Assembly: GCF_000021945.1 (NCBI RefSeq)
Contig: NC_011831.1
Location: 1,313,353 to 1,377,352, forward strand
DNA: 64,000 bases
Direction of reading: 5' to 3'
DNA from: Chloroflexus aggregans DSM 9485
Lineage (GTDB): Bacteria > Chloroflexota > Chloroflexia > Chloroflexales > Chloroflexaceae
The notes under the pieces are model-generated. The model was not told where the DNA came from and made no database searches. It worked only from the letters and a program-made list of their open reading frames with translations. This document shows positions 244-25,877 of this stretch, piece after piece. The position numbers and the translations under genes are program-made. Position 1 is the first letter of the stretch. Each line of letters opens with the position of its first letter.

Positions 244-1482
244 CTAGGATGGAAGCCGACAGGTATTTTGCAAAGACTCATATAACCGTTTTGCGCACTC
301 TTCAACCCTTTGCGCGCCCTGCGGTTGTTTCCGCTTGCCGGCGTGCATAAGATCGTTGCGCAAATCACCAAGTTGGTTATAAAGATTAATCACTTCTTTC
401 AGTGAGGGAATGGCATTGAGATCAACAGGTATCTCTGCGCCAGTACCGCCCCTCTGAGCTTGGACAGCCTCGCCAAGCATCTGTTCGACCAGTTGACGCT
501 CTGCCTTTTCCAATATATCACTCTTACCAAGTTGTACCATGACCCACGACACCAACCACTCACGAGCCAATGCCACCGCTTGAAAAACCTGACCGCGATC
601 CAGATACCAGCCAACTAAATTCAGTTCGGTTTGCAGTATGCGTAACGGATCGACTTGTTCGGTTTTACCGAGCGCAATTGGGCGAAAATTGTCAATGATC
701 TGCTGAGCTAGCGGCATAAAGGGCACTGCCAGCGTGCCGATCTCGTGTTCGACAGCGGGCAATTGTTGCATAATCTGAGCACTTGCCTGCATTGCATCAG
801 CCGGACGCACGACGCGCAGTGCCTTTGAGACTTTCGTCAGATTCTTCGCTGTTGCTTTAATTGGTGAATTGTTCCAAGCAGCCATTTCATCCTTACTAGC
901 AGTTTTTGGATCGGGCTTGCCCCGATTATGCTGCGTATGCAGCAACGTAGCCAAATCACGCGCATCGCCGAAACGCACAAACAGGTCGGCCCCGACCATC
1001 CAGTCGAGCAATTCGACAAAATTGGTCAGATCAAGCACAGGCGTGCGATGAGGAGTGACACTCTGATCACGCATTTCAAAATTACCGAAGAATACATGTT
1101 TTAGTTGAATGGACTTGACTTTGCGCAAATAGGCAGCGGCGAGGAAGGATAAGAATGGCAGCGAGCGAAAGCCGTGAGTAATATCGAACACAACCGCTGC
1201 GTTCGGTTCAATGACGTCAACCACAGCCTGAAAGATTCGCCACAGTTCAGCATCATCGCGCCCATCAGGGATGCGAACTGCTTGAATGCTCGCAGCTTGC
1301 GCACTGGCAAAATATTGATGGTAGAATTGAGCCGTCAGTTCAGTAGTAAAAACAACGAAATCCAGATCTGGAAGGTACTGAGCCAATGCTAGCCCGAAAA
1401 AGGGCGCAACATGCTCGCAACCATCTGGAAAGACATAGCATGTTTCTTGCGGTCTAGCGCCGAGGAAGGTAATGGCTTTCAT
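244..1482 (-). CDS. csx1: Csx1-family CARF-HEPN effector (DxTHG / TM1812-MJ1666 type)
   Basis: N-terminal ITFLGARPQETCYV, FDITHGFRSLP (DxTHG) and VFFGNFEM motifs typical of Csx1 CARF domains. C-terminal RNDLMH matches the HEPN Rx4-6H motif. It is the last gene of the cas operon. Confidence 0.7.
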   Translation of the reverse strand: MKAITFLGARPQETCYVFPDGCEHVAPFFGLALAQYLPDLDFVVFTTELTAQFYHQYFASAQAASIQAVRIPDGRDDAELWRIFQAVVDVIEPNAAVVFDITHGFRSLPFLSFLAAAYLRKVKSIQLKHVFFGNFEMRDQSVTPHRTPVLDLTNFVELLDWMVGADLFVRFGDARDLATLLHTQHNRGKPDPKTASKDEMAAWNNSPIKATAKNLTKVSKALRVVRPADAMQASAQIMQQLPAVEHEIGTLAVPFMPLAQQIIDNFRPIALGKTEQVDPLRILQTELNLVGWYLDRGQVFQAVALAREWLVSWVMVQLGKSDILEKAERQLVEQMLGEAVQAQRGGTGAEIPVDLNAIPSLKEVINLYNQLGDLRNDLMHAGKRKQPQGAQRVEECAKRLYESLQNTCRLPS

Positions 1483-1490
1483 CGAACACC

Positions 1491-3587
1491 CTACTCCTTC
1501 TCCTTTGTGAGTAACGGCAAACCCTGCTCATCGCCCGGCTCTTCGAGCACGAGATTAGGACCGGCATCGGCCATTTTGTTCGATTTTACCTTATTGGCCA
1601 CAAACCACTCGAAGTTCTTTCCCTCTGGGTCTGGATGAACATCGGTGCGCGGGTAATGGATGGGAAGCGGTGGAACCGGATCGCGCAGCAAGGCGAGGAG
1701 ATCGGTAATATGCGGTAATCGGTCCAATGATTGACCGTAGCATCGCTGCATCGCCTGTGCAAACGCTGCCACCCATTCACTTCGTTTGCCAACCTCAGCT
1801 CGCCGCCACCCCGATTGCTGCAATGAACAATAGCGAGTGCTGAGTTCGAGCAGATCAACCTGATCTACCGTCAACTTAACGCTGCCAAATCCGAGCGGTT
1901 TAGCATAACCGAGCCGGAAAAAGCATTTTTCTTCGCCCAAGCTTAGCGTCCATAGCAACGCACCAAGCTCAACCGGTGCCAGGTTATGAAAATCGATTGT
2001 GAACTGAAATACGTTACCCGGCACACGTACTCCGCGCACCGTGCGATTCTGATGATCGCGACGCTGTCCGGCACGCTCATATTCGAGCCGATTCAGACTA
2101 TTTCCGTGGTGACGGTAGAACTTCCGTCCACGCAACTGATTGGGTCCATCGTAGCCAATGGTGGTTGCAGAGCCTGGTCTCTTGCGCTCCTCCTCACTCC
2201 ATTCGCCGTCTTTCTTGCGCAGGTAGAAAAGCGTGGTGGTCGGTTTGGGTGAACCCAAGACGGCCAACGGCATGGGTTCGGCATATACGCCTTTGTCATC
2301 AATCAATACTGCGTGGCTAAAGCGCACCCGTCCGGCATAGGCAACGCGATCCTTGCGATCCTCGGCTGGCGTGGCGCGTACCCATCCGAATACGCGCGAA
2401 GCAATGTCTAGCCGCTCGTACTCTTCACTCGGCTTCAGGTGCTCAGGGAGCAGATCGCCGATAGAATGGCGATAGCGCAGCCGCGCCACTTTTGCCAGGG
2501 CAATATTGCGCACGGTCTTTTGATCCGGTTCCAGTTCAACGTACACCAAATTGCCCGATGCCAGCCGATCACTCTGCCCCTGGCTGTGAAAATCGTCACG
2601 TCGTTCGTGGAGTTGGGCCTGCAACACCGCGTTAAAGTCGGCTTCGCGCTCGGCATCGAAATGGACGTGCTTGGCTTTGGCCGGAGCACCTTCTTTGAAA
2701 TAAAAGAAACGCTCATTGCGTTTTGTCTCGATAGTGCGGCCGGTTATTTTCACCCACCCCTTAACCAAGGGTTTGTTGTACTTTAGTAAGCGATTTTTAT
2801 CTTGCTCACGCGCAAGTGCTTCCACCTTCTTCACACCATTCTTGGCGGTGCTCAGAACGGCATACGCCGTTTCACCACAACGCCAATCGCCGTGCAAAAC
2901 GTTCAGGTTACGGTCTTCGTGATACGCACCGATTGTCGCCTCCTCGCAGAGGGCAATGACGCCCGGTTGATCACCGTCCGGCAAACTCAGCACGATGCCG
3001 GGTTTAAACCGTTTGGACTCAATCGGGTCGATACGATACTCGAGCCGTTCCTCGCCATTGAAGACACTGAACGGTGAATTGGTCACCGTTTCAAACAAGG
3101 CACGGATCATACCGCGCAGACTCGTAGCAGGTATAGCGTCTTGACCATCATACTGGAAAAAACGGTAGTTTTTATGCTGAACTTCGCGGTTATCGGCCAG
3201 CAGAATAGTAGTCGATTGCACATCGTGGCTATCCGCAATAAAAAGAGGGGTGACCGCTTCGAGGGTGCAGGTGATACGCCCGGTCAAACCCACATACCGG
3301 TCGTGAGGCGGTGGTGGGCAACGGCCCAGCAACTGCGCATCGGGATCGGTTTCCGGTATATCGGGTGGTGGCAAATAGCGGACGAAATTGTATGGGTTGA
3401 GGAAGCGGTAGGCTTCCCGCGCCTTGGTTGACTCTTTGGCACGTGGCCACGGCACCGTCGGTGGCGATGGTTGAACCACCTGCACCGGTGTCTGATGACG
3501 ATCCCGCTTTTCGGGGCGATTGGCCTTGCCTCCGCTTTGATGCATCTGTCCACGCTTTGGTGTCTGTTTGTTTCTGTGCTTCGCCAT
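1491..3587 (-). CDS. Large RAMP-superfamily protein (Cas7/Cas5 group), paralog A, 698 aa
   Basis: Has a YRFLNPYNFVR N-terminal motif, LTGRITCTLEAVTPLFIADS (beta1-like) and a glycine-rich loop IPATSLRGMIRALFE. A C-terminal G-rich segment YAKPLGFGSVKL is present. It shares a clearly paralogous motif set with ORF 4380..6476. Confidence 0.55.
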   Translation of the reverse strand: MAKHRNKQTPKRGQMHQSGGKANRPEKRDRHQTPVQVVQPSPPTVPWPRAKESTKAREAYRFLNPYNFVRYLPPPDIPETDPDAQLLGRCPPPPHDRYVGLTGRITCTLEAVTPLFIADSHDVQSTTILLADNREVQHKNYRFFQYDGQDAIPATSLRGMIRALFETVTNSPFSVFNGEERLEYRIDPIESKRFKPGIVLSLPDGDQPGVIALCEEATIGAYHEDRNLNVLHGDWRCGETAYAVLSTAKNGVKKVEALAREQDKNRLLKYNKPLVKGWVKITGRTIETKRNERFFYFKEGAPAKAKHVHFDAEREADFNAVLQAQLHERRDDFHSQGQSDRLASGNLVYVELEPDQKTVRNIALAKVARLRYRHSIGDLLPEHLKPSEEYERLDIASRVFGWVRATPAEDRKDRVAYAGRVRFSHAVLIDDKGVYAEPMPLAVLGSPKPTTTLFYLRKKDGEWSEEERKRPGSATTIGYDGPNQLRGRKFYRHHGNSLNRLEYERAGQRRDHQNRTVRGVRVPGNVFQFTIDFHNLAPVELGALLWTLSLGEEKCFFRLGYAKPLGFGSVKLTVDQVDLLELSTRYCSLQQSGWRRAEVGKRSEWVAAFAQAMQRCYGQSLDRLPHITDLLALLRDPVPPLPIHYPRTDVHPDPEGKNFEWFVANKVKSNKMADAGPNLVLEEPGDEQGLPLLTKEKE

Positions 3588-3700
3588 CGCGACCTCATTG
3601 GATATGTGCTACGACAGGTCGTGCTTTCAGATCGTTAATCATCAGTTGAAAGATTTGGTGACACGCATCGAGAATATCCTTCGCGGTGCTCATATCCCAT

Positions 3701-3925
3701 TCATTCTCTGCCGGGATACATGGCAATATTTCGCCTTCTCTGTAATTCTTCCAACAACTGCATCAGCTCAGATGGACAGTTCAAAATCGGGATACGGAGC
3801 ACTTCTAACAAGGCGCCCCAATTCCTTCTTTGGGCCTGTTGATGAGTGACTTTAGAATAGTAGGTTCGTAATACCTCTTCAGTAGCGCGGAGCATAAACA
3901 TATGAATAACACTTTGCAGCTTCAT
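3701..3925 (-). CDS. Small hypothetical protein (74 aa) in an AT-rich insert between the RAMP paralogs
   Basis: ORF in the same frame as 3935..4330, separated from it only by a TAA and 3 codons. Local AT-rich composition differs from the flanking cas genes. Confidence 0.3.
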   Translation of the reverse strand: MKLQSVIHMFMLRATEEVLRTYYSKVTHQQAQRRNWGALLEVLRIPILNCPSELMQLLEELQRRRNIAMYPGRE

Positions 3926-3934
3926 AAACGTCGG

Positions 3935-4330
3935 TTAACTCCAGCATCTCCGTATCGACATCAAAAAACATATTGGATCACGGAGCAGATCGATGATCTG
4001 ATCCGTGCAATCCCGCAACGTTACGAACACTCTCCGCCTGTACCCCTCTTCAGACAAAACGTTACGCACATTTCTAGCGATCTGTCGTATCTTTCTGGCA
4101 TCCCTACCTAAAACATCGGAATGATGATCCTTCTCTATGCAATTCAACACCTCGTCTAAGTCAGCACTCAAAACACGCGCAGCTTGAGATAATTCGAGTT
4201 TCTCCAGGTCTTGACGGAGCATTCTTTGTCGATCAACAATGCCAGGTCGATTGGTACGAGAGGGGTAAATCGGTGTTCGGGCAGTGACATTACCCAGAAA
4301 CTCCAGGTTCAAACCAATATACATGAACAT
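3935..4330 (-). CDS. Small hypothetical protein (131 aa), predicted helical; possible Cas11-like small subunit or unrelated accessory
   Basis: Its size and position between RAMP genes resemble Cas11 (Csm2/Cmr5). No diagnostic motif was recognised, and it lies in AT-rich inserted DNA. Confidence 0.3.
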   Translation of the reverse strand: MFMYIGLNLEFLGNVTARTPIYPSRTNRPGIVDRQRMLRQDLEKLELSQAARVLSADLDEVLNCIEKDHHSDVLGRDARKIRQIARNVRNVLSEEGYRRRVFVTLRDCTDQIIDLLRDPICFLMSIRRCWS

Positions 4331-4379
4331 GACCTCCCACAGCGACAGCTCATTGGTTTTCTCTATGGAACTGCCTCAC

Positions 4380-6476
4380 TCACGGGATTATATTGCCATT
4401 TTTATCAATCAGGGGTAAACCCGCCACATCATCCTCCGCCAGTGGCAATGCGATACGCGGTCCGGGATTGTTACCGCCCCGCTTGTTGCCGACAAACCAT
4501 TCGTACTGTTTGCCATCCGGCTGCGGTTGGCGGGTCGGACGCGGATAGTGGACCGGCAGGGGAGGTGTGTCAGCCAGTAATGCCTTGAGGTCGCAGATGT
4601 TTGCCAACATCTCGAAGGCGGCGCCGAAGCGTAACTTCATTGCCTGCTTGAATTCCTTGATCCATGCATCGATTTTTTGCTGATCCTGATCGTGCCAGCC
4701 GCTACTCGTGAACGAGGCGTATCGCGCTTCAGGGTGCAGCAAGGAAATCTTCACGATGTCAATTTTCGCCGAGCCAAAACCCAGCGGTTTGGCGTAGCCG
4801 ATGCGGTGATGCCATCCTTCGATCTGCAAACTCCAGAGCAGTGCGCCAAGCTCCAGCGGCGCCAGGTTCTCGAAATCCACAGTGAACTCAAAGATGCTGC
4901 CCGCCTGCTGAACGCCACGCACCGTGCGGTTCTGATCGCTCTTCACACCGTTAACACTCCGGTATTCCTGCGGATTGAGCCGCGCGCCATGATGCCGATA
5001 GATCTTGCGCCCGCGCAGGATCTGATTCTGGTTGTTGTAATCTACTTGTCTATCGTCTTGTCCATTTTGTGGTTTGCCGGTGCGTGGACGCAAATAGAAG
5101 CGATAGGTGGTCGGCTTGGGTGTAGACAAAATAGCCAGAGTTTCATCAAACGTTCCGCCATCTTTGGTCAATACGGCATGGCTGAAGCTAACGCGCCCGG
5201 CATACGCCGTTCGTACTGACAGTTCTGGAGGATTAACGGCAGTTTCGTCACCCCACACCCACCCAAACACCCGACACGCAGGGCAGAGCGCATCGTAAGT
5301 CGCGCATTTCTTCAGGTCAGACGGGTACAGCAGATCGCCGATGGTGCGCTCGAAGCCGACACGCGGCACCGAGACGGGCACAATGAATCGCACCTTGTAT
5401 CCACTGTTGCCAACTTTGTCGAGCATGGCATAGACCAGATCACCATCTGTTAGTTTTTGGCGGCCTTCGACAATAAAACGGCTGAAGGCCGGCTCTGTGC
5501 CCTGCGGACGATTTGGATCCCGCCGTTTGCGCACCTCATCGCGGTGACGCTCTTGATAGTCGGCGATCAGTTCTTCGTACTTCTGCCGCACCGTGTCAGG
5601 CAAATCAAGCGGAGAGAGCTTCTGATTGGTGAAGAACAGTCGCTCATCGTGTTTATTCTCAATGTTCTGATTGGTAATACAGAGATACCCGCTCACCTTT
5701 AGCTGATTAGCACCGGGCTCCGGCAGTGATTGAGCCGATTTTGCCAGATGCACCACATTCCAGAACTTGAAATTGCGGCGCGGATGGATCATACGCTCGA
5801 TAATCGCGTGACACAACTCACCATGCGCAAAGCCGGTCAGCGAGAGTTTTTGACGCTGGGCGTAAGGTTTACTGAGCGACTGAGCGACCGTTTTGCTCTT
5901 CTGCAACGGATCGTACACATGCACCCATGCAGCGTACTGCGGACCGGCAGGTCGTTGGCCGGGTGTGATCGTTGTTGTTCCGGGTAACAACTCCAATTCC
6001 CACCGCGTGTTGATTTTGCGCACCCGCGCTGGAACCAGTTGCAGCGCCAGCTCTGGCAACAGGTGATAACTTAATCGCTTATCGCCGGCAAAGTGGGCAA
6101 AGCAGGAATTGGTCGCTGCTTCAAAGATGGCGCGGATTGCACCGCGCAGACTCGTACCGGGAATAGCGACCTTGTTCTCCGGATCGCGAAAGAAGCGATA
6201 GTGACGATGTATCTTGCCGTTGACGTGCTCTTCGCGCACGTTCTCACCATCCGCGACAAAGATCGGGGTGGTAGCGGTGAGCCGGCAATAGATGCGTCCG
6301 GTCAACCCTACATACCGATCATGGGGCGGCGGTGCGCAACGGCCCAGCAATCGAGCAATGTGCGCATTGCGCGTTTCCAGCGTGCGCACGAAGTTGTATG
6401 GGTTGAGAAAGCGGTATCCTTGTGCAGATGAGGTACCGCTCGATATAGACCGGCGTTGGGTTTTAGATTTGCTCAT
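4380..6476 (-). CDS. Large RAMP-superfamily protein, paralog B, 698 aa
   Basis: Has YRFLNPYNFVR, LGRCAPPPHDRYVGLTGRIYC, the G-rich loop IPGTSLRGAIRAIFEA and a C-terminal YAKPLGFGSAKI. It is the same length as paralog A, and its start overlaps the upstream gene's stop (ATGA). Confidence 0.55.
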   Translation of the reverse strand: MSKSKTQRRSISSGTSSAQGYRFLNPYNFVRTLETRNAHIARLLGRCAPPPHDRYVGLTGRIYCRLTATTPIFVADGENVREEHVNGKIHRHYRFFRDPENKVAIPGTSLRGAIRAIFEAATNSCFAHFAGDKRLSYHLLPELALQLVPARVRKINTRWELELLPGTTTITPGQRPAGPQYAAWVHVYDPLQKSKTVAQSLSKPYAQRQKLSLTGFAHGELCHAIIERMIHPRRNFKFWNVVHLAKSAQSLPEPGANQLKVSGYLCITNQNIENKHDERLFFTNQKLSPLDLPDTVRQKYEELIADYQERHRDEVRKRRDPNRPQGTEPAFSRFIVEGRQKLTDGDLVYAMLDKVGNSGYKVRFIVPVSVPRVGFERTIGDLLYPSDLKKCATYDALCPACRVFGWVWGDETAVNPPELSVRTAYAGRVSFSHAVLTKDGGTFDETLAILSTPKPTTYRFYLRPRTGKPQNGQDDRQVDYNNQNQILRGRKIYRHHGARLNPQEYRSVNGVKSDQNRTVRGVQQAGSIFEFTVDFENLAPLELGALLWSLQIEGWHHRIGYAKPLGFGSAKIDIVKISLLHPEARYASFTSSGWHDQDQQKIDAWIKEFKQAMKLRFGAAFEMLANICDLKALLADTPPLPVHYPRPTRQPQPDGKQYEWFVGNKRGGNNPGPRIALPLAEDDVAGLPLIDKNGNIIP

Positions 6477-7063
6477 TGTGTCTCCACCTTATCTGGCCTG
6501 TCACTTAATGCCCGATACCAGACAAACGCCGTGCGCCCCTGTTCGGTGTAGCGCCAGAAATGCAAGTAGACGCGACCAGTTGCATTCAGAGGATACGCCA
6601 GGATAGCTGCTGCAACCCGGTCTTCGAACCAGCGCGGCTGATGATCTTTACGCTCGCCCCATAGCATGACCGACTCCGCGTAGCGGCGAAGCTGACAGTC
6701 AGGATGTTCCTTCCAGAAGTCCCTGGCACCGAAACTCGTGAACGACACTGATGTGCCAATGTAATGCCACAACCAGCGGTTGCCATCGCGTCGCAGCGAA
6801 AGATGACCAAGCTCACCGAAGATCTCGGCACGCTCGAGGAACTCTGGCTGCGTCGGCAGATCGGCAAACTCGATATGGCTGACGTGCTCCCAGATGCGGT
6901 AGGGCATCGCCTGCCAATGCCCTTGCCACGCAGTGAGGAAGGCTTGCAGTTGATCAGGCATACACTCGCCACCCAAAATGGCTGGGCGATCTGAGTTGCT
7001 CAGATTCGCCTTCTGCATCTTTTCGTACAGTTGGGTAAAAAAGTCGTTGCTTTCGTCGCTCAT
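6473..7063 (-). CDS. Hypothetical Trp-rich protein (196 aa) embedded in the cas operon
   Basis: It has 4-nt overlaps with both neighbours, which implies translational coupling. No recognisable motif was found. Confidence 0.4.
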   Translation of the reverse strand: MSDESNDFFTQLYEKMQKANLSNSDRPAILGGECMPDQLQAFLTAWQGHWQAMPYRIWEHVSHIEFADLPTQPEFLERAEIFGELGHLSLRRDGNRWLWHYIGTSVSFTSFGARDFWKEHPDCQLRRYAESVMLWGERKDHQPRWFEDRVAAAILAYPLNATGRVYLHFWRYTEQGRTAFVWYRALSDRPDKVETQ

Positions 7064-8853
7064 GACACCCTCGCCGGATAGAGATCAGGCAACCATGTGC
7101 CGTTGATTTTATCGAAGTAGCTGTCTTTCTTCAAACCGAAGGCATGTTTATATTCCTTGACCGTCACATTGAACGCTCTGATCCAGCTCTCTACCAGTGT
7201 CCTCCAATCGTTCTCTGTTGCCGGATCAAGCATCAACGTGCGATAGACGCCGCTCATCCCGCCTTTCGATTGCAAAAGTTGCTGTTTAGCGGTAATCGCC
7301 TGCTGCGCGGCCGGCTCCTGGTTATTCGGCTCAGACAGCGGAAAATCGCTTTCGTGAATAATACCGAGAGTCACAGCACCGTCTTCGATCCTGCACTGAC
7401 CAAAACCTTTGGCAGCGCCGAAGCCAATAGTGATCAACCCATCGTGCAGATCGCGCAACACCAGCGCCAGCCAACCCAATTCCCACGGCTCTGGATTCTC
7501 AAGGAAGAGCCGCACCCGAAACTTCGGCTGCCACAGCACCACCGCGTCGAACTTGGCCGTATCGCGTCCGCCGCCGGTAAAGCGGTCGATAGCCAGAAAA
7601 TCGAGCACCTTGAGAGTGACCTTGTCGCCGACAAATGGTGCATCTTCGACGCGCAACCGACTGCCGTTCCACGGGCTGCCGAAGAGCCGGCAGGCGAGAC
7701 AGAGTTTCTCCTCTGCCCCTTTTTGCTCCAACGTATCTCGTTCAACCTTTGGTCGAGCCTTGATAAAGCTGTTACAACTTGCAACCGGGTCATCGGTCTT
7801 GGTCGTCAGCGGATTACAGGCGGGGCATGTCGCTAAGAATGACGTTTTGCGACTCTTCATATCCTTACCGTTATCCCACGCGCTGAAGGTTGCCAGAGTA
7901 CGGGCGATCCGCTCGGCCTGACTCCGCAAGGCGCCGCGCAGGCTCGAACCGGGCAACACCGGCTTAGCCCCTTGCTCATAAGCCGCGAACACCGGCGCAT
8001 GATCAAACCCGCTCCGACCGGCTTGAGCCACATCGTTGGTCAGAAAGGGACCGGTTGCGGCCAGTGTAAATTCGGCCAAAACCCATGAACGGGCAACCGG
8101 ATCATTACCTTGGTACGGTTCTACCCACGCCCGCACCTGCTGGACCTGATTGGTCAGCCATGTGCGGTCGCCGTCAGTAGTGTGCCAAGGCGGCCCGCGG
8201 TGTAAAAACTCGATCAGCACCCCTGCCTGATTCAGATCGCGCTCGATCCACTGCACCTCGTTGAGGGTAAACGCACCCAACCCCCGATTGACCCGACCAC
8301 CGATTGCGCCTCGTCCCTGTTCCCATTCGGCCAACGTCGCCGCCAATAAGGGCAGCAGTTTCGGCACATCAGGCAGTTTGGGATCGATCTCAAGCCTCAG
8401 AGTAAATACCGTCCCTGCCGGCAACACTTCGTAATCGAACTTAATCCGTTCGCGGCGCGCAGCCGCACCGGTCACCCGATCAATCCCAACGCCATCGCGG
8501 ATGGTCAGCGATGGGATCGTATCGAGCACGGCATCGTAGACCAGCACCCGGGTAGCAGTGGCGGTATCACTATCTTCCCTTGGATTCACATCGCCGAAGA
8601 GTTGACAGACGAGGCATTGACAGGCGTCGTTTGACGATTGGTTGTCAATCACTTGACACGGACTTTCCCCAAAGCGAGGCGCGAGCCGCGTGGCAATGCT
8701 GCGCAGCACACCGGCGATAGCGGTACCCGGTATGAGCAGCCGCCCCCGCACGTCACGGCGCAAGAGATCGTCGGTCGTTTCCGTATCGCTGCCCGTGCCC
8801 ACGTGAAGCGCTGTACGCAGCGTTAGATTGGCAGTGATGGCACGAAACTTCAT
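7060..8853 (-). CDS. Fusion of two Csm3/Cmr4-like Cas7 domains (Cas7-Cas7), 597 aa
   Basis: Domain 1 has LHVGTGSD, LLIPGTAIAGVLRS, a CQCLVCQLFG zinc knuckle, GIDRVTGAA and GGRVNRGLGAF. Domain 2 has LPGSSLRGALRS, CPACNP...CLACRLFGSPW, AIDRFTGGGRD and IGFGAAKGFG. Both look like complete Cas7 units. Confidence 0.7.
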   Translation of the reverse strand: MKFRAITANLTLRTALHVGTGSDTETTDDLLRRDVRGRLLIPGTAIAGVLRSIATRLAPRFGESPCQVIDNQSSNDACQCLVCQLFGDVNPREDSDTATATRVLVYDAVLDTIPSLTIRDGVGIDRVTGAAARRERIKFDYEVLPAGTVFTLRLEIDPKLPDVPKLLPLLAATLAEWEQGRGAIGGRVNRGLGAFTLNEVQWIERDLNQAGVLIEFLHRGPPWHTTDGDRTWLTNQVQQVRAWVEPYQGNDPVARSWVLAEFTLAATGPFLTNDVAQAGRSGFDHAPVFAAYEQGAKPVLPGSSLRGALRSQAERIARTLATFSAWDNGKDMKSRKTSFLATCPACNPLTTKTDDPVASCNSFIKARPKVERDTLEQKGAEEKLCLACRLFGSPWNGSRLRVEDAPFVGDKVTLKVLDFLAIDRFTGGGRDTAKFDAVVLWQPKFRVRLFLENPEPWELGWLALVLRDLHDGLITIGFGAAKGFGQCRIEDGAVTLGIIHESDFPLSEPNNQEPAAQQAITAKQQLLQSKGGMSGVYRTLMLDPATENDWRTLVESWIRAFNVTVKEYKHAFGLKKDSYFDKINGTWLPDLYPARVS

Positions 8854-8856
8854 CGG

Positions 8857-11193
8857 CTATCTCCTCTCTTCAGCCTTCTGGCGGGCAGGCGCAGCGATCC
8901 GGGCAGCCAGCATCTGCAAGCCGATCTGCAAGCCGATGCGCCATGCCAGCGGATTGTGGTCCAACTTGTGTGACTTGAGTTTATCTACCAACGCATCCAG
9001 CAGCTTATCGATCACATCCATACCGCGCTTCCCGTCAGCCGTGAAGAAATTCGGTTTGTCGCGGCCGGACAACGATTTGCCGAGGAGGTTCTCTGCATTC
9101 CCTGACCGTTGTAAATCCTGCTTGATGGCATCAACCGAGGTGTGCTGAGAAACATGTAACAGCCGAGCAATCGTCTCAAAACGCCCATCGTTGAAACAAG
9201 CGAAGGATGTTGCTTCCGCTTCGAGCTTTTCCTCCCACTCGCGGGTGAAAGCAAGCACGGCCACAAACGGGGGCGACTGCTCGGCAGACGCCATCTGCAA
9301 CGGGGTGAGATCGAGCATCGGACTGGTGATCCCTTGAAGTTGACGGTAGACCGGATGATTGAACGCAACACGACCGAAGCCCTCATTGCGGCGGAGACCG
9401 ATACCCTGCGCCTCTACCTCCCCCAGACGCTGTCGCAGGTCATCCAACGGGATTCCCTTGAAACTCAGGCGTACACTGGAACCGGCAACGATGGCAATAT
9501 CTCGCGCGCGCGGCAACCCTAACGTGGCATTGAAGGAGTCCACCGTCCGCACCGCTGAAAACGCCAGCGCCTCGCCATTCTGGTTGCAATCAATCGAGAC
9601 TGCTGCGCCATTCGGCAACTGCAACTCGCGCTTTAGCCATGCGGTATCGAACCCACGCCAGAAACGTCCCCACGGATCGACGATAATCGCATCACTCAAC
9701 AATAGCATCGTGACATGCTCCGTTGACGTGAGGCGTCCTGTGAGTGACTGCAAGCTGAACAGCGGTTCGTCGATTTTCTGAAACACGGCGCTGACTTTAC
9801 CATAGCCGCGTTGGGTGGCTTTACCGAGGTGCAGTTCGTTTACCGCTCCATTTGGTTGAAGATTGGCCATGCTCTGTAAAAGGTCCCAGACCGTTTGATC
9901 GGTACAGGTTACCTCACCGACAAAATACTGACCCGGCTCTAAAGCTACGTATCCGTACAGATCGCCGGTACGCACCCGCCCACTGTCAGGATCGATGCGA
10001 ATGTGCATTTCCACCATTGTGGACGGTTTGTGCTTGGAACGCGGCATACCACTGACTAATGAAATAAACCCTTCCAAGCTTGTTAACTGGCCGGTACGCT
10101 TACATCGCGGGCATTCCTCTGGCGCACTCGGATCGAACAGACTCCAGACTCCATGGCCTTTATCTCGGCTAGGATCGGCATGCCCCGGATGCAATTCACA
10201 CGTTAGCAGATCGCGCGGGGCAATTATAGTGGGATAACCATTAGCTTTCTGAAACACTTCTACCGGGGTCAACATCGAGAAGCGCACTGTATCACGGTAG
10301 AACAGATCGACAAAATCTTGGTATACCGACCCCTGAAGTTGCTTTCCCAGATGCTTCGCCGCACGCCACGCCAGCGCGCCGCGCAGCACACTGCCGGGAA
10401 TGATGTCGAGCGTCTCGTACTGATTACCGGCTTCGACCCGACGAGCGATCAGTAACGGTTCGTCAAGCCGCATGAGAACGCGCAAGCGATAGGTATGATG
10501 GTTGGGATAGGGGGGCAACTGAAGCGGACTGATGTTGATTGCGCCGGCAGGCAAGGCGGGTTCTGCGACTTGTTCATCTCTTAACCGCTTGGCCAATCGA
10601 TCCAGAATCGCGGTTTCCTGCGCTCGATCAACAAGATGAATCTCGCACTCACCATAGCCACGCCGCTTCCCGGCGCCAAGATTACGCAGCATACGTGCAG
10701 CGGCGACGAGCCATTCAGCCTCGCGCTGCGCATCGGCATCATCATTCTGGCACTCGGCCACGAAGCGGAAGTGCAAGCTGCCATCACCCTCCTCACGGGT
10801 GAACAGTTTATTTTTCTCGGCCCGACGTGTGCGAGGATTAACCCGCACGCGCGTTGTGATCTGCGCCGCCGTTTCGCCCGCACTCCACACGTCCGATGGC
10901 ACGAGCGGTGTCATCATACCCGCAGGTCGTGCAGAAGAGATACGCCAACGCTTTTGGCGGGCGGGCGAACCGAAGATCGTATCCACCACATGGTGATTGG
11001 ACGCGAACACTTGCAGTGTCAGCAGGTTGGTTAAACTTTCGCGCAGGAGACCGGCCAGCACCGTGCCGCGGATTACCGGTACGCCGTCGGCATCGCGGAG
11101 TAGGGCCGAGTCAACTTGCAGACCGAGACCATAACCGGCGCCGATGTGGTAATCGCTCTTGAACTCGATCTCGAATTCGAGACGGATACTCAT
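8857..11193 (-). CDS. RAMP fusion protein (778 aa): N-terminal Csm5/Cmr6-like Cas7 domain, second Cas5 (Csm4/Cmr3)-like domain, helical C-terminal extension
   Basis: Domain 1 has DYHIGAGYG, VIRGTVLAGLLRE, IFGSP and LGAGKRRGYGE. Domain 2 has IIPGSVLRGALAWR, VRFSMLTP (resembling the Csm4 'fS.a.P' motif), an ECPRCKR zinc motif and GIGLRRNEGFGRV. The last roughly 150 aa are predicted helical and could be a fused Cas11. The gene is adjacent to cas10. Confidence 0.5.
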   Translation of the reverse strand: MSIRLEFEIEFKSDYHIGAGYGLGLQVDSALLRDADGVPVIRGTVLAGLLRESLTNLLTLQVFASNHHVVDTIFGSPARQKRWRISSARPAGMMTPLVPSDVWSAGETAAQITTRVRVNPRTRRAEKNKLFTREEGDGSLHFRFVAECQNDDADAQREAEWLVAAARMLRNLGAGKRRGYGECEIHLVDRAQETAILDRLAKRLRDEQVAEPALPAGAINISPLQLPPYPNHHTYRLRVLMRLDEPLLIARRVEAGNQYETLDIIPGSVLRGALAWRAAKHLGKQLQGSVYQDFVDLFYRDTVRFSMLTPVEVFQKANGYPTIIAPRDLLTCELHPGHADPSRDKGHGVWSLFDPSAPEECPRCKRTGQLTSLEGFISLVSGMPRSKHKPSTMVEMHIRIDPDSGRVRTGDLYGYVALEPGQYFVGEVTCTDQTVWDLLQSMANLQPNGAVNELHLGKATQRGYGKVSAVFQKIDEPLFSLQSLTGRLTSTEHVTMLLLSDAIIVDPWGRFWRGFDTAWLKRELQLPNGAAVSIDCNQNGEALAFSAVRTVDSFNATLGLPRARDIAIVAGSSVRLSFKGIPLDDLRQRLGEVEAQGIGLRRNEGFGRVAFNHPVYRQLQGITSPMLDLTPLQMASAEQSPPFVAVLAFTREWEEKLEAEATSFACFNDGRFETIARLLHVSQHTSVDAIKQDLQRSGNAENLLGKSLSGRDKPNFFTADGKRGMDVIDKLLDALVDKLKSHKLDHNPLAWRIGLQIGLQMLAARIAAPARQKAEERR

Positions 11194-12818
11194 GCCTCGT
11201 CCTCCTGCGGTTCATAATCGTCGGGGTTATGACTCAACTCCTGCGCAAACTCCCAAACTTCCAGCAGATCGAGCATGCCGTGAACGACCACATCGCGGTT
11301 ATCGCGCGTGATACTGCGCCAATAGTGAGCGCCATTCCCGTCGTTCTTGGGCTTGCCCAGCACCGCAAGCGCATCGACTACCGCCGAACGTGAAGCTGCA
11401 CTCAATCGCTCCAAAATCCATTCGAGCCGATGCTGCGTCCACCGTTCTAAGTTTTGGGTACGCTGCTGCACAGGAATATCCGTCTGCACCTCGGCAAAAC
11501 AACGGCGCAATTCGGCCAGACGCTTCCGGGGAAGATCTTTCAGGGCATAGCGCTGCGCCAGCAGATGCTTGAGGTCGATCCCGCGCAGCAAGGCGTCTTT
11601 CGAGAGATCGTGCTCTGCGACCCAATACGGACGTAACGAGCGCCGGATGACCTGATCACCGTCTGCCTCGGCCATACCCGCCAACCGATTGCCCAAAATG
11701 ACCTCGAAATTGACCGCCGATAGATGCCCGTTCGTCTTGGCAGCCAGCAATTTGCTCTGGCGCTTGGCATCCTCCAGCAAAGCTTCGGCCCGGCGATGGG
11801 CCAGTGCATACGGATAGGTACGCTTGCAAATCACCACTGCTGCGGCAATCGTCGGGCGAGGCACATTGTGCAGACCTATCTTATTTACCAGCATCTGCAT
11901 ACGCTCTTCCCATTCGAGGCAGAAGCGACGGGCAATATCGAGCGCATACGACGCCGGCACAAGTGCAAAGAGATCATCACCACCGAGAATGAGCGGGAGC
12001 ATCGGCATCATCGTCGCCTGTGCCGGAACTTGCTTGCGGAACTCAATCATCGGAACGGCCAGACTCTCACTCAGCACCGTTGATAGACCTTGCGAAAGGT
12101 TCTGGAGCTGCCCCTGGTCACAATTGCCGAATAATTGACCCATACCGTTGCCGTCGGCCACCAAATAGGCTACGTAGTTTCGTTTACTCAGGTCAAAAAC
12201 GGCAATGGCATCGGCGTCTTCGGGCCAATCGGGTTCAATGTGGGCAGGAATTGCCGCTTTCTTAGCATAAGGATCGTACACTCCACCAAGGAATTCGCGC
12301 AGACCACGATCACGCTCAGTTGCTTTGATCTGACAGGTCGCACACAGATACCTGTGGCGGGAATCGTTCCTTCCCGCCAGCCGATCACGCCGTTCCGCCA
12401 ACCCCACGCCACACGACTCGCAGAATGCGACATACGGCATATGCACTTCGGCTACTACTCCCTGCCGATGACTCTTCGCCCAGCGCAACTTTGTACCGGC
12501 TTCATCATTGGCCGTGCGGAAATCACTGTTCATCGCTACAGGCTCAGCAACTGTCAGACTGCCACCCAACGCCAGCCGGTAGCGTTCAGCCAGATCGGCG
12601 CCGAAAGCAACCGCGTCATTTCGATCGTCAAAGATCACCCGAAAACTACCACCATCGTTGACCACAACCTGACCGTTGTACTGCTTCGCCAAGGTATCTT
12701 CGACGCTACGGCAGAAGCGAGTCAGCAACTGACTCGCCCCAACCACTTCGCGCAAGCGCGAAGAGCGAAAGATGAAATCCTGAATCTTATCGGCCTCGGC
12801 GGCCAAGAGGTAGGGCAT
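11190..12818 (-). CDS. cas10: Cas10 (minimal, no HD domain; cyclase GGDD intact)
   Basis: The N-terminal ADKIQDFIF motif is a palm-domain hallmark. CESCGVGLAE...RYLCATCQ is a treble-clef zinc finger. ILGGDDLFALV is the GGDD cyclase motif. At 542 aa it is too short to carry an HD nuclease domain. Confidence 0.75.
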   Translation of the reverse strand: MPYLLAAEADKIQDFIFRSSRLREVVGASQLLTRFCRSVEDTLAKQYNGQVVVNDGGSFRVIFDDRNDAVAFGADLAERYRLALGGSLTVAEPVAMNSDFRTANDEAGTKLRWAKSHRQGVVAEVHMPYVAFCESCGVGLAERRDRLAGRNDSRHRYLCATCQIKATERDRGLREFLGGVYDPYAKKAAIPAHIEPDWPEDADAIAVFDLSKRNYVAYLVADGNGMGQLFGNCDQGQLQNLSQGLSTVLSESLAVPMIEFRKQVPAQATMMPMLPLILGGDDLFALVPASYALDIARRFCLEWEERMQMLVNKIGLHNVPRPTIAAAVVICKRTYPYALAHRRAEALLEDAKRQSKLLAAKTNGHLSAVNFEVILGNRLAGMAEADGDQVIRRSLRPYWVAEHDLSKDALLRGIDLKHLLAQRYALKDLPRKRLAELRRCFAEVQTDIPVQQRTQNLERWTQHRLEWILERLSAASRSAVVDALAVLGKPKNDGNGAHYWRSITRDNRDVVVHGMLDLLEVWEFAQELSHNPDDYEPQEDEA

Positions 12819-12836: not shown

Positions 12837-14570
12837 TTATTGGCGCAGACCCGGCGGTAGGAATGTCAGATCGCATACCTCAACCAAACGCGACCACGAA
12901 GGTGCTGCGACTCGCTCTTTCCTTCCTGTAGCAACAGCAACCGTACCTGGATAGAAATACTCTAACCAGTTTTGGATAAACTCATCCACAGCAGCCTTTA
13001 CCCACTCCAACGCGGCCTCGGCAACAGAACGAGGAAGGTGCAGATGGGTATGAATGGCTTCACCGCGCAGTTTGGTGAAACCCTGATAATTCTTGTGAGA
13101 AAAATCGAGCGCTTTGCCGTTCCAATACTTACTGAGTGAAGGGCAGCCCGACGCAATTTCTACTTTTCCAATCTGTCGCAGGTCAAGCGGATCGCCTCCC
13201 ACCAATACCCCTCGCATTGCCCTAGCCCCACTGTGATCGGCGAGAAGTTTGAAACCTTTGATCTGATCGGCATTAGATAAATTACTCACTTTGCTCGTTG
13301 ACCCGCTATTGTCCTTCAGGACGAGGCTATCTTTGAGCCAGGCAATACATAGCCGCGCCTTCAAGAGAAACTCGTCCAGAGCGGCCGCCCGCAAATACGC
13401 CGAACGGTAATCTTCATTCTTCGTAATCAACCGCTCGTTCTTCGCCAGCTCATCGCTCACATACGCCAGCAGCGGTTCTGGTCGGGCAAACAGCGAATGA
13501 GTAGGGGCGGGATCGCCATGTTTCAACTTCAGATGTTCATCCAGCAACTGCTGCGCCGCAGCGGTTGCGGTCGTTGCTGCGGACACATTGGGCCAAATCG
13601 GACCTAAGACATCAATGCTCCACGGCACCACATCATCGGGCAACGGTGGATTGAAGCGATCGCGCATCTGCTTAGCAACGGCGTAATTGCCGTTTTCCCA
13701 CTCTTCATACATTCTGAGCAACTCGGCCAAACGCTGTACCTTCTCCAGATCACACGGCTCAAACAGCGACTCACCATCGGCAGTAACGTCCAGAGTTTGC
13801 GACATCGCGCCGAGGATACCACTCCCCTGACGATCGGGGCTGTGCTTCGTCCCCAACAAAACCAGTGCATTGCGGAAGCTGTAGCTTTCGTACAACCGTC
13901 GCACCTGCTCCCAGTCGCGCAGGTGGAAGGCTGCGTAGGGGTTGGCAACGGTGCCAATGCGACAGGTAAAGCCATAGGGCCGGTGCCAATCACGGTCATA
14001 CTCATCAAAATCGACATAGGTGATCGGCAGACCCGAATGAGCCGCGTAGAGAAATGCGCCCACCACCATACTCTTCTTAGCGCCGGTAATGTCTACGACG
14101 TTGGTGTAACCTGCCGGAGGTTGGGCTTCCTGTTTTTGGAACGCTTTGCAGAGAGTGCGGAAAACGTGGGTAGGCGTATCTTTGGGCAGTTCGATCAGGT
14201 CAAAACTATTGTCCGCCAAGTCGGGACGGAACTGTTCAGGGAGGGGAGCCTGCTTCAGGCTCAGCATATACTGCTTAAGCAGCGTACCATGATCGACGCC
14301 CGGCATCCCGCTATACGATGTATTCAATACCAACACCACCCGCTGCGGCTTCAACACGCAAACAACCTGCAACAACGGCTCAAACGACTCGCCGACGGTC
14401 AGCGCTAAGGTATGCACGGGCCGGTCAACACCGCGTAGCCGATCAGGTTCTTGAGCAGCTATCTTAAGTTCGCAACCCAGCAATTGCTTAATATAATCCT
14501 CATAGTCACGTTTATTCCAGTATTTGCGCGTCTGTTCCCTCAAATTGTCAACATCACACTTGCCACCCAT
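12837..14570 (-). CDS. csm6: Csm6-like CARF-HEPN protein (577 aa)
   Basis: The CARF Rossmann core is HTLALTVGESFEPLLQVVCVLKP...VVLVLNT plus VVDITGAKKSMVVG (DxTGxK type). C-terminal RGEAIH matches Rx4H HEPN. It is the first gene of the operon. Confidence 0.55.
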   Translation of the reverse strand: MGGKCDVDNLREQTRKYWNKRDYEDYIKQLLGCELKIAAQEPDRLRGVDRPVHTLALTVGESFEPLLQVVCVLKPQRVVLVLNTSYSGMPGVDHGTLLKQYMLSLKQAPLPEQFRPDLADNSFDLIELPKDTPTHVFRTLCKAFQKQEAQPPAGYTNVVDITGAKKSMVVGAFLYAAHSGLPITYVDFDEYDRDWHRPYGFTCRIGTVANPYAAFHLRDWEQVRRLYESYSFRNALVLLGTKHSPDRQGSGILGAMSQTLDVTADGESLFEPCDLEKVQRLAELLRMYEEWENGNYAVAKQMRDRFNPPLPDDVVPWSIDVLGPIWPNVSAATTATAAAQQLLDEHLKLKHGDPAPTHSLFARPEPLLAYVSDELAKNERLITKNEDYRSAYLRAAALDEFLLKARLCIAWLKDSLVLKDNSGSTSKVSNLSNADQIKGFKLLADHSGARAMRGVLVGGDPLDLRQIGKVEIASGCPSLSKYWNGKALDFSHKNYQGFTKLRGEAIHTHLHLPRSVAEAALEWVKAAVDEFIQNWLEYFYPGTVAVATGRKERVAAPSWSRLVEVCDLTFLPPGLRQ

Positions 14571-14723
14571 ACACCCCTCCCTTGTGGATAACCACTACGT
14601 ACATCGGTTGGCAGCCTGATCTGCTCTTGCAGTCTACATTACCACTACTGTCGGTGCAGCTCATCCCCACTCCTGCTGATTCTTCCTCATCACTTCTGCT
14701 GATGCGAATCGGTTGAACGGCTG

Positions 14724-15590
14724 CTACACTCCCTCAATAAACATAGCAAAATGATCGCGGATGAAGCGATAGTCGAGTGGTTCGCTGTTCGAAAGTTCCC
14801 ATGCGTTGCGGCACTCGGCCAGGATGGCGGTCTTGTGCGTGTTGACCGTGCTGAGCGAGATCGATAGACGCTCGGCGACCTGGTCGGGGCGAAAGCCCTG
14901 CGCAAAGGCACGAAGTACGTCGCGTTCGCGCGGACTGAGCCGGTCCCAGACTTGACGGCAGCGTGGATCGTCAACCGCAGTGAGTTGGCGTAGGTAAGAA
15001 GGAAGCGATGTCTGTTGGGTGAGTACCCGTAGTCCGGGGAAAAAAGCACCCCACGGCTTGAGAGGAACCGCGATGAGACGCACACCATCGGCGGGCGAGA
15101 CGTGCATCTGCGCACCGTCTTTGACTCGTGCTAGCGTCGCTTCAGGGGTGTGCATGTGCCATAAGCGGTCACTGAAATCGCCGTAGATGGAGATAACTGA
15201 GGTTACCAGTAAGGCCAGCATTCGCCGTCCACCGCTGATGCAGAGGTGCAACCGGCGGCCTTCGGTTTTGAGATTGGTGATAAGGTCGCGGATGGTGGCG
15301 AAGGCGGCATCGGCATCGGCTTCGGTACGGATGTCGTCGAGTTCAATGCCGTTGCGGGTAATCGGTACGTGTCGGAGCCGACAGCGTTGACCGGCGTAGT
15401 AGTCGTCAACGAATTCGGCTTGCAGCCTTTGCCAGGCTTGTCGGATGCGCGGATTGGCCAATGAGAGGTGCAAGATATAGACTTCGTTGATGGCTTCACC
15501 TTGGGCGAGCAGGGCGTCGAGGGCGAAGGTGATCACTTGGGGCTGACCACCAAGGGTTGCGATCAGTGTTGTCGAGTGAGATGTTGTCAT
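14724..15590 (-). CDS. Transcriptional regulator: N-terminal CARF/Csa3-like Rossmann domain plus C-terminal LuxR/GerE HTH
   Basis: Has TLIATLGGQPQVITFALDALLAQGEAINEVYILHLS (Csa3/CARF-like) and C-terminal LSPRERDVLRAFAQGF...LSISLSTVNTHKTAIL (LuxR HTH). The ORF track extends upstream to 15935, but that part reads through the promoter. The likely start is MTTSHS at about 15590, with an alternative at about 15629. Confidence 0.5.
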   Translation of the reverse strand: MTTSHSTTLIATLGGQPQVITFALDALLAQGEAINEVYILHLSLANPRIRQAWQRLQAEFVDDYYAGQRCRLRHVPITRNGIELDDIRTEADADAAFATIRDLITNLKTEGRRLHLCISGGRRMLALLVTSVISIYGDFSDRLWHMHTPEATLARVKDGAQMHVSPADGVRLIAVPLKPWGAFFPGLRVLTQQTSLPSYLRQLTAVDDPRCRQVWDRLSPRERDVLRAFAQGFRPDQVAERLSISLSTVNTHKTAILAECRNAWELSNSEPLDYRFIRDHFAMFIEGV

Positions 15591-15613
15591 AAGACTGTTT
15601 GTCAAGCGTTGTT

Positions 15614-15628
15614 TGCTATATGATAGCA
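15614..15628. promoter_or_regulatory. Inverted repeat TGCTAT-ATG-ATAGCA in the divergent promoter region; candidate operator
   Basis: Perfect 6-bp arms with a 3-bp spacer lie between the divergently transcribed CARF-HTH regulator and the P-loop/Csx3-like gene. Confidence 0.3.
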
Positions 15629-15671
15629 TGTTCACAATGTTTATCACAATATTCTGATCTCGTTTGAAGGA

Positions 15672-16829
15672 GTGAACGTTGTGGCCTCGTCGTCTACCTT
15701 TCCTGCTGTTATGATCGGTGGTCCTCCGCACAGCGGTAAGTCGGTGTTGGTGTATGCGTTGTCGCGTGCGCTGCGTGCAGCAAATACGACCCACTATGTG
15801 TTGCGGGCTTGTCCTGATGGCGAGGGCGATTGGAGCCATGAGACGCCGGAGGAGCGGGTACGGTTGTTGCGACAGAAGGGCCGGTTTAGCAGTGAATTTG
15901 TCGAGCGAGTACGCTGTGCTATTGAGCGTCGCCACTTGCCGTTGTTAGTTGATGTGGGTGGTAAGCCGACGCTTGAGCAAGAGCAGATCTTGCGCGCATG
16001 CACCCATGCGGTGTTGCTGGCAGCTACGCCAGAAGGTTTGGCCGAATGGCGCGAACGAGCCGAGCGGTGTGGGTTGATCATTATCGCCGAATTGCAGTCG
16101 GTATTGCATGACGAAGATCGGGTTGATGAAAAAACACCGGTGTTGCGCGGCGTCATTAGTAAGCTGGAGCGGCAACATCCGCCTCATGGTTTGATGGTGC
16201 AAACATTAAGCGAACGGTTACGGCATCTGTTCGCGTTCTCGCCGGAAGAGCTGAAGGAACGGCTGTTTCCAAGAGCGCCTACGGAGTTTATTGTCGATCT
16301 TGATCGACTTGCTCGCTCTGCCGGGACTACACATTGGCAGCCGTCTGATCTTTCCCGCATCTTACGTGAGATCCCGCTCACAACGTGTTCAATCTACGAG
16401 CGCGGTCCGAATTGGTTGTATGCAGCGCTGGCTTTGCACATTGCACCGGAACCGGTGTTTCTGTTTAACCCGCTCTTAGGTTGGGTTCGTCCGCCGTCAG
16501 TAGTGCCCGGCGAACAGCCATCAGACTTGCTGCAATGGAAACTGCAAACCACACCCACCTTTACGTGGATCGAAGCCAATCCTACCCAAGCCTACCTCGA
16601 CTATGACGAGATGCAGCAGTTGGTTGCACCGGCTCTCGATCCGCAGCGCGGTGTCGTGCTCAGTGGAAAGCTACCGCACTGGTTGTTGATCGGTCTTGCC
16701 CTCGCCTATCGCCAGCATCCGTGGATCGCAGTAGTGCAAGCTCAACAGTACGACAACGGTGTGGTGGTGTGGAGTCGCGATCCGCAGTACCCAATCGGGT
16801 CACTGGTGCCGCTCTCGTCTTTCCCTTAA
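15672..16829 (+). CDS. P-loop NTPase fused to two Csx3/Crn3-like (cyclic-oligoadenylate ring-nuclease-like) repeats
   Basis: N-terminal Walker A MIGGPPHSGKSVL. Two C-terminal segments (GPNWLYAALALHIAPEPVFLFNPLLGWV and GKLPHWLLIGLALAYRQHPWIAVVQAQQYDNGVVVW) resemble the Csx3 core recalled as 'LP.WL.aALAlh....vAVy.prlg.vvv'. This is recalled from memory and not profile-verified. Confidence 0.4.
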   Translation: MNVVASSSTFPAVMIGGPPHSGKSVLVYALSRALRAANTTHYVLRACPDGEGDWSHETPEERVRLLRQKGRFSSEFVERVRCAIERRHLPLLVDVGGKPTLEQEQILRACTHAVLLAATPEGLAEWRERAERCGLIIIAELQSVLHDEDRVDEKTPVLRGVISKLERQHPPHGLMVQTLSERLRHLFAFSPEELKERLFPRAPTEFIVDLDRLARSAGTTHWQPSDLSRILREIPLTTCSIYERGPNWLYAALALHIAPEPVFLFNPLLGWVRPPSVVPGEQPSDLLQWKLQTTPTFTWIEANPTQAYLDYDEMQQLVAPALDPQRGVVLSGKLPHWLLIGLALAYRQHPWIAVVQAQQYDNGVVVWSRDPQYPIGSLVPLSSFP

Positions 16830-25785: not shown

Positions 25786-25877
25786 GCGATCCGTTAATCC
25801 TAGCCCATGTAGATATTCAACAATATTAAGTATATCAGAGGCAAGTAATCTTGTAAAGTCATGAGACGCAACGACGC

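Follow-up and report, generated by a model that had tools for sequence, protein, structure and literature searches.

A candidate cyclic oligoadenylate-sensing regulator with CARF and LuxR-type domains ahead of a type III-D CRISPR operon in Chloroflexus aggregans

CARF proteins that carry a helix-turn-helix (HTH), including those of the NE0113 family, were predicted in 2014 to regulate transcription from nucleotide signals, and a review from 2022 names Csa3 as the sole experimentally characterised non-nuclease CARF effector (PMC9704534). The present analysis concerns a further protein of this general kind, here called REG, which joins a CARF domain to a LuxR/GerE-type HTH and is encoded directly ahead of a type III-D CRISPR operon in a stretch of 64,000 nucleotides from the chromosome of Chloroflexus aggregans DSM 9485 (NC_011831.1, positions 1,313,353 to 1,377,352). 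This whole 64-kb stretch is referred to as the window, and all coordinates are given within it. We consider the chances slightly better than even that REG is a dimeric transcription factor that senses cyclic oligoadenylate (cOA), binds two boxes immediately behind its own stop codon and, most likely, activates the type III operon.

The closest described system is Csa3 of the Sulfolobales (Csa3a/Csa3b), a CARF and winged HTH transcription factor that binds cyclic tetraadenylate (cA4), yet its binding to DNA in vitro did not depend on cA4, which left the mechanism unresolved (PMC8699464, PMC8844856). REG shares with Csa3 a CARF sensor followed by a DNA-binding domain, association with CRISPR genes and a link to palindromic promoter sites (candidate sites in REG), and the structure of Csa3 with cA4 (6wxq) ranks high among the structural matches of REG. 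The two differ in that the CARF domain of REG belongs to Cas_NE0113/CARF7 and scores below the cut-off of the Csa3 model, and in that REG has a four-helix GerE/LuxR HTH in place of a winged helix. Moreover, Csa3 is archaeal and found at type I-A loci, whereas REG is bacterial (Chloroflexota), lies ahead of type III operons and has a sharply defined candidate tandem operator at activator positions. The ‘large’ standalone Crn1 enzymes Sis0811 and Sso1393 likewise consist of a CARF7-type domain followed by a C-terminal (winged) HTH, and it was speculated by their authors that cA4 turnover is coupled to gene regulation (PMC8643638). Unlike these enzymes, REG has Gln for the catalytic Ser, Arg for the Lys, a LuxR-type HTH and an identifiable candidate operator. 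With NarL, DosR and LuxR, REG shares the DNA-binding domain and the register of the recognition helix; these regulators bind palindromic sites as dimers, with activator sites near -43 and a second site upstream, as would be the case for REG by analogy. Their sensor is a phospho-receiver or autoinducer-binding domain, whereas that of REG is a CARF domain. The gene divergent from REG belongs to the AAA-Csx3 family, listed by Shah et al. (2018) as a type III accessory family (cluster 67, example Caur_2269). In the literature searched, which did not include the main CARF classification paper (Makarova et al. 2020), no description was found of the CARF-LuxR fusion or of the REG operator, and none was found in the searched literature of the divergent pairing of REG with AAA-Csx3.

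Domain architecture and ligand pocket of the regulator

The regulator gene and its domains are as follows.

14724..15590, minus strand: REG gene, 288 amino acids (aa), CARF (Cas_NE0113) plus LuxR/GerE HTH, stop codon at 14724-14726
15021..15572, minus strand: CARF domain, residues 7-190, with motifs LGGQPQ (13-18) and SGGRR (119-123)
14799..14966, minus strand: GerE/LuxR-type HTH (PF00196), residues 209-264
14820-14852, minus strand: recognition helix, residues 247-257

An earlier note, made from the sequence alone, had proposed that REG fuses a CARF-like domain to a LuxR-type HTH, and this is borne out by two Pfam families, an AlphaFold2 model and Foldseek. The profile search for a CARF domain that the note had called for matched Cas_NE0113 (PF09623) far above the cut-off, with an E-value of 1.5e-49 and 169 bits (cut-off 23) over residues 16-203 and profile positions 1-202 of 208, and GerE/LuxR (PF00196) was matched over residues 217-257 (E 8.6e-11, 41.7 bits, cut-off 23.5). 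The assignment of REG to CARF7 rests on the Cas_NE0113 match together with statements in other papers that equate Cas_NE0113 with CARF7. The AlphaFold2 model, of a monomer and built on 119 homologues, has a mean predicted local distance difference test score of 87; residues 7-190 fold into a Rossmann-like domain, which a linker of low confidence (195-206) joins to a helical HTH domain. When this model was compared with the PDB using Foldseek, the Crn1-type ring nucleases Sis0455 and Sso2081 ranked first, followed by Csa3-cA4, the CARF domain of Cad1 and Csm6; Sis0455, Sso2081, Csa3, Cad1-CARF and Csm6 were matched with a probability of 1.00 and target-normalised template modelling scores of 0.62-0.69. 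By both Pfam and fold the N-terminus is a CARF domain, and not the unrelated receiver or other Rossmann fold that the note had held out as the contrary case. The description of REG as ‘Csa3-like’ holds for the architecture but not for the family, as the NCBIfam model for Csa3 (TIGR01884) gave 15.8 bits against a cut-off of 60.2. REG also fell below the NCBIfam cut-offs of the Crn1 equivalog NF040581 (17 bits, cut-off 125), of the Csx14 model TIGR03642 (54.8 bits, cut-off 90.35) and of TIGR02584. Many of its relatives are labelled Csx14 by JGI.

Both CARF pocket motifs are present in REG, one in the loop that follows strand 1 and the other, GG-basic-basic, behind strand 4. When a profile of the CARF half was aligned to Sso2081, the LGTSPG motif of the ring nuclease corresponded to LGGQPQ, with T10 replaced by Gly and S11 by Gln, and its TGGRK motif (R105, K106) corresponded to SGGRR. 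Across 119 sequences, G120, G121 and R123 are invariant and R122 is near-invariant, and the replacements are conserved as well: Gln at the position of the Crn1 catalytic Ser is near-invariant and Arg at the position of the GGRK Lys is invariant. Retention of the basic GGRR motif argues for cOA binding, whereas the changes from Ser to Gln and from Lys to Arg put ring-nuclease activity in doubt, so that REG probably lacks it. Catalysis by Crn1 involves a Ser in the strand-1 loop (S11/S12) and a Lys (K106 or K168/K169) (PMC9638899, PMC8643638). In the HTH-bearing Sis0811 and Sso1393 both the Ser and the Lys are needed for cA4 cleavage, while in the short Crn1 enzymes the Lys and an Arg count for more (PMC8643638, PMC9638899). 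A combined role for REG as a sensor and slow ring nuclease is possible. Proteins such as REG would be missed by the length cut-offs applied in ring-nuclease censuses, such as the limit of 250 aa in PMC12409355.

The HTH is modelled as four helices (residues 209-217, 220-230, 235-242 and 246-264) and, by both Pfam and AlphaFold2, is a GerE/LuxR domain with no winged helix. The C-terminus of REG matches the structures of StyR, LiaR, VraR, RcsB and FixJ in the Foldseek comparison, and the HTH aligns with the DNA-binding domains of NarL, RcsB and VraR in the PDB. Within the recognition helix, T248, V249, H252, K253 and T254 are near-invariant among the homologues, while S247, N250 and T251 vary. 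The variable residues align with K179, K182 and N183 of DosR and with K188 and V189 of NarL, all of which are base-contacting residues.

Candidate operator boxes and their proposed use

REG lies 153 nucleotides (nt) upstream of the type III-D operon and on the same strand, which agrees with its placement directly upstream of the cas operon in the earlier note. The interval holds three elements.

14686..14703, minus strand: box A, proposed REG operator, ATCAGCAGAAGTGATGAG, centre at about -65 of the cas promoter
14663..14680, minus strand: box B, proposed REG operator, ATCAGCAGGAGTGGGGAT, centre at about -42.5 of the cas promoter
14636..14644, minus strand: extended -10 of the cas-operon promoter, TGGTAATGT, hexamer at 14636-14641, transcription start site predicted near 14629

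For comparison, one genome per species was scanned for REG relatives, which yielded 205 loci, nearly all in Chloroflexota, of which 80 were kept (L001-L080). In most of the related loci a pair of 18-bp boxes with the consensus ATCAG-N8-CTGAT stands directly 3' of the REG stop codon, and the two boxes start 22-23 bp apart (23 bp in the window, where a repeat finder also detected them as a direct repeat). With a position weight matrix derived from 41 of the loci, no stretch of the 64-kb window scored higher than box A (18.0 bits) and box B (15.4 bits), and the next match reached 11.6 bits. When the matrix was applied to 701 kb of related loci, 66 matches had 14 bits or more, and 58 of these were located no further than 150 nt past a REG stop codon; for 56 of 73 loci, comparison with random segments gave p<=0.05 for the region behind the stop codon. 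The boxes are followed at a fixed distance by a promoter-like element, since a TAnnnT hexamer starts 21-22 nt past box B in 38 of 40 loci, and the extended form TGnTAnnnT is found at 18-19 nt in 21 of these 40. When the hexamer is counted as -12 to -7, with promoter and transcription start called by consensus, the end of box B occupies the -35 position of the cas promoter, where there is no good -35 hexamer. NarL is reported to activate from sites at -43.5 and, in tandem, at -44.5 and -77.5 (PMC10853779). By analogy, boxes at about -42.5 and -65 with a -10 and no -35 are arranged as for an activator of the NarL or LuxR type. The suggestion in the earlier note that the protein controls the effector operon gains support from this conserved arrangement of boxes and promoter, but not by way of the palindrome on which the note had relied.

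Across loci, the box half-site changes in step with residues 247, 250 and 251 of the recognition helix. The classes observed are listed below, and the association of helix with half-site gave p = 1.6e-4 in a crude 2x2 test in which the classes follow clades and comprise few independent events.

Helix LSTVN: half-site ATCAG(CAG)
Helix LKTVD: half-site ATCAGAG-N4-CTCTGAT
Helix VKTVHA: half-site ATTGGAA-N4-TTCCAA
Helix VRTVHA: half-site ATTGTAA-N4-TTACAAG

In the clade with ATTGTAA boxes (L038, L046, L079) a conserved block, TATGATACCATAGAAAGGGGGCGAGGAC, precedes box A, and in L046 and L079 the whole block is found 200-300 nt past the REG stop codon, behind an inserted segment. Three other loci (L022, L024, L026) have an ATVHSHKT helix, AAA-Csx3 about 4.4 kb away and downstream ORFs (open reading frames) that do not match the cas proteins of the window; no clear boxes were found in them.

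The domains, the fold, the architecture of boxes and promoter and the helix/half-site co-variation make a cOA-sensing, NarL-like activator the most economical reading of REG. The components of a cOA signalling pathway are all encoded at the locus: its Cas10 retains the GGDD motif, and there are further CARF proteins as well as a ring-nuclease domain (Csx3). Under this proposal, recognition of target RNA would lead the locus's own Cas10 to produce cOA, most likely cA4, which would be sensed by the CARF domain of REG. The LuxR/GerE HTH, as a dimer, would bind the two 18-bp boxes right after the REG stop codon, and cOA-bound REG would raise expression of the effector operon in a positive feedback. 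AAA-Csx3, and possibly REG itself, would then remove the signal. Here we infer the DNA binding, the responsiveness to cOA and the identity of the ligand, the preference for activation over repression, the feedback logic and the transcription starts. If correct, the expression of a type III CRISPR system would be wired to its own second messenger. The family would offer a simpler test system, with a bacterial sigma-70-type promoter, two 18-bp candidate sites at activator positions, natural specificity variants and a type III operon as the direct target.

The divergent intergenic region and alternative explanations

The earlier note had drawn attention to a palindrome in the 90-nt region between REG and the divergent Csx3 gene, which is indeed present there and overlaps a probable promoter found by consensus scan.

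15614..15628, strand-neutral: palindrome TGCTAT-ATG-ATAGCA, TGCTATATGATAGCA, a perfect inverted repeat
15620..15649, minus strand: probable REG promoter, with -35 TTGTGA (15649..15644), an 18-nt spacer and extended -10 TGCTATCAT (15628..15620)

Perfect inverted repeats of this quality (arms of 6 bp or more, spacer no longer than 10) occurred in 24% of dinucleotide shuffles of this intergenic region and in 19% of 90-nt segments across the 64 kb. Such repeats are found in 19 of 75 homologous intergenic regions, each unrelated in sequence, and there is no second copy of the palindrome in the window. Its left arm is kept as an extended -10, TGCTAYNAT, in nine relatives (L001-L005, L011, L012, L017, L018), while the right arm reads AGAGCG or AAAGCG in the closest loci, with four of six bases kept, and is unrelated in more distant ones. 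As the frequency is at chance level, the left arm coincides with the extended -10 and the right arm is not conserved, we conclude from these comparisons that the palindrome is probably a by-product of the promoter element. Control of the divergent Csx3 gene, as the note had also envisaged, finds no support: in the matrix scan the intergenic regions between REG and Csx3 showed no excess of the box motif, with 3 of 74 loci reaching p<=0.05. A k-mer count over 75 loci, which sought a shared intergenic motif, returned only ribosome-binding sites and coding-derived words.

On the plus strand, TGATAGCAT at 15621-15629 resembles an extended -10, with TTGTCA (15599-15604) 19 nt upstream. The promoters of REG and AAA-Csx3 may thus lie back-to-back with overlapping -10 hexamers, which would account for conservation of ATGCTA beyond the need of one strand. 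Just upstream of the REG -35, at 15643-15658, lies a near-palindrome, ATCAGAATATTGTGAT, that resembles the REG box (7/8 per arm, ATCACAATATTCTGAT) but has a spacing of N6 against the N8 of the box, and it is not conserved. A direct repeat, TCACAATGTT / TCACAATATT (15632-15653), overlaps it.

Three in-frame starts are available to REG (ATG 15629, TTG 15605 and ATG 15590). The protein is 100% identical to the ‘transcriptional regulator, LuxR family’ of C. aggregans DSM 9485, which starts at ATG 15629 in GenBank and has 301 aa; an exact-protein look-up with the 288-aa form accordingly gave no match, the database entry being the 301-aa annotation. The annotated ATG shares bases with the TG of the probable extended -10, and its product would extend past the N-termini of the homologues. 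ATG 15590, which gives the 288-aa form, is the most likely start, because homologues begin 8-12 residues ahead of the conserved ATLGGQPQ motif, because the homologue in L001, which is 85% identical, has its start ATG at the aligned position, and because ATG 15629 would lie ahead of the REG transcription start, predicted near 15613.

Several points weigh against REG as a cOA-sensing activator. Csa3, the only studied analogue, bound DNA without regard to cA4, and close relatives of REG carry the NCBI name ‘CRISPR-associated ring nuclease’. The co-variation of helix and half-site follows clades, with perhaps three to four independent switches, and is uncorrected for phylogeny; the weight matrix was trained and tested on one and the same region; and the calls of promoter and transcription start assume that sigma-70-type rules hold in Chloroflexota. 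In addition, box B is weakly palindromic, both boxes of the window have poor right halves, and a site that overlaps the -35 could equally repress. A serious, albeit unlikely, alternative is that REG acts from these sites as a repressor. REG bound at the -35 would silence the cas operon, and perhaps block read-through from its own gene, until released by cOA, a scheme that has been put forward for Csa3b at the type I-A interference genes. The overlap of box B with the -35 position, the weak likeness of its right half (CTGAT) to TTGAC, the reported repressor function of Csa3 (PMC6546367) and the common theme of CRISPR loci that are silenced until infection all fit such a role, but promoters that lack a -35 do not, nor do centres at -42.5 and -65, which correspond to known LuxR/NarL activator positions, and repressors more commonly bind across the -10 or the transcription start. 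A role of REG chiefly as a ring nuclease of the Crn1 type, which would degrade cA4 and in which the HTH would be structural or modulate catalysis as suggested for the winged HTH of Sis0811, appears quite improbable, although Sis0455 and Sso2081, both ring nucleases, are the solved structures closest to it in fold, the GGRR motif is kept, and Cas_NE0113/CARF7 includes Crn1 enzymes with a C-terminal HTH (PMC9638899, PMC8643638). In REG a near-invariant Gln takes the place of the Ser (S11/S12) on which those enzymes depend, and Arg that of the Lys, the Crn1 model scores far below its cut-off, and a pure enzyme would leave unexplained a near-invariant helix whose clade-specific base-contact residues track the adjacent boxes. 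The roles of ring nuclease and regulator are, however, mutually compatible.

The remaining explanations concern the DNA elements themselves. It is very improbable that the palindrome is the REG operator and controls REG and/or AAA-Csx3, as the earlier note had proposed, and it was rejected in this role on the shuffles, the single copy and the lack of conservation. It is a perfect repeat that overlaps the -10 of the probable REG promoter, and its right arm is partly kept in the nearest relatives; its sequence, however, is unrelated to the conserved boxes, which are likely the better operator candidate, and the right arm is lost in distant loci despite a conserved recognition helix. Least probable of all is that the boxes act as RNA hairpins in the 3' untranslated region of REG, as a terminator, stabiliser or processing site. 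Each box could form a short hairpin, and mismatches between half-sites on the sense strand are more often G-T (39) than A-C (14), but other, non-pairing mismatches are far commoner (114) and no U-tract follows the boxes. A search for Rfam families in or near the boxes gave only a sub-threshold chance match, and neither the fixed spacing to the -10 hexamer nor the co-variation with the HTH would be expected of an RNA element.

Genomic setting and further features of the window

The genes on either side of REG are as follows.

12837..14570, minus strand: first operon gene, encoding a CARF protein of 577 aa that has the motif DITGAKKS (VVDITGAKKS) and a weak TIGR02710 match
244..12818, minus strand: rest of the type III-D operon, with Cas10, Csx10, a fused Csx7, Csx19, two TIGR03986 RAMP proteins and a TM1812/DxTHG CARF protein
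11190-12818, minus strand: Cas10, 542 aa, GGDD intact, palm2 domain, no HD domain
15681..16829, plus strand: divergent AAA/P-loop plus Csx3 (Crn3-type) gene; the ORF opens at 15672, with GTG 15681 after a GAAGGAG ribosome-binding site

The operon is of type III-D by its gene content, with the signature genes Csx10 and Csx19 alongside Cas10; Csx19 matches TIGR03984 in NCBIfam with 44.8 bits (cut-off 35), and Csx10 matches TIGR02674 with an E-value of 6.8e-24, yet below the cut-off. No Pfam family was found for the 577-aa protein, homologues of which elsewhere have Card1-like CARF and endonuclease domains. The divergent gene, described in the earlier note as P-loop/Csx3-like, proved to be a fusion of AAA_16 with PF09620 (Csx3, E 7.3e-17). 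The 64-kb window contains no CRISPR array, and the genes to the right of 16957 are housekeeping genes.

AAA-Csx3 is a divergent neighbour of REG at short distance in 74 of the 80 loci, while the downstream cas genes vary. In the 53 loci in which the first ORF past REG could be called, it encodes a Cas10 of the Csm1/Cmr2 type in 18, a TIGR02710/Card1-like CARF protein in 7, Cmr1 in 3 and Cas6 in 1, so that REG and its boxes precede type III effector operons of several subtypes. Between L008 and the window the cas genes are 83-85% identical, whereas REG is only 70% and AAA-Csx3 57% identical, and L001 shows the reverse pattern. As REG and AAA-Csx3 have diverged independently of the cas genes downstream of REG, these comparisons suggest that the two behave as a module, or mobile regulatory cassette. 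It is tentatively proposed, at somewhat less than an even chance, that REG represents a Chloroflexota family of cOA-switched, NarL-like class II activators in which residues 247, 250 and 251 form a code for the half-site, and which travels with AAA-Csx3, the signal remover, as a portable cassette. Its members would switch on complete type III effector operons after target detection, in a self-amplifying and self-resetting immune circuit, and would provide the earliest example of a CARF transcription factor whose operator and promoter are clean enough for ligand control to be measured.

Elsewhere in the window, an AT-rich gap of about 790 nt (3588-4379) separates the two paralogous TIGR03986 RAMP genes, which form a tandem duplication of roughly 3 kb, and small minus-strand ORFs of 131 and 74 aa within this gap have no Pfam match. 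A perfect 48-nt tandem duplication, CCACCCGTAGGGGCACGGCGTGCCGTGCCCTCACTGACGCACAGCACG in two copies (25955-26050), lies at the 5' end of a MarR-like ORF (25285-26049). A 168-nt repeat occurs at 29912-30079 and again, 13 kb away and with 97% identity, at 43107-43274. Finally, a 56-nt repeat is present in three copies at 38973-39148, with spacings of 75 and 45 nt and 66-91% identity to the reference copy.

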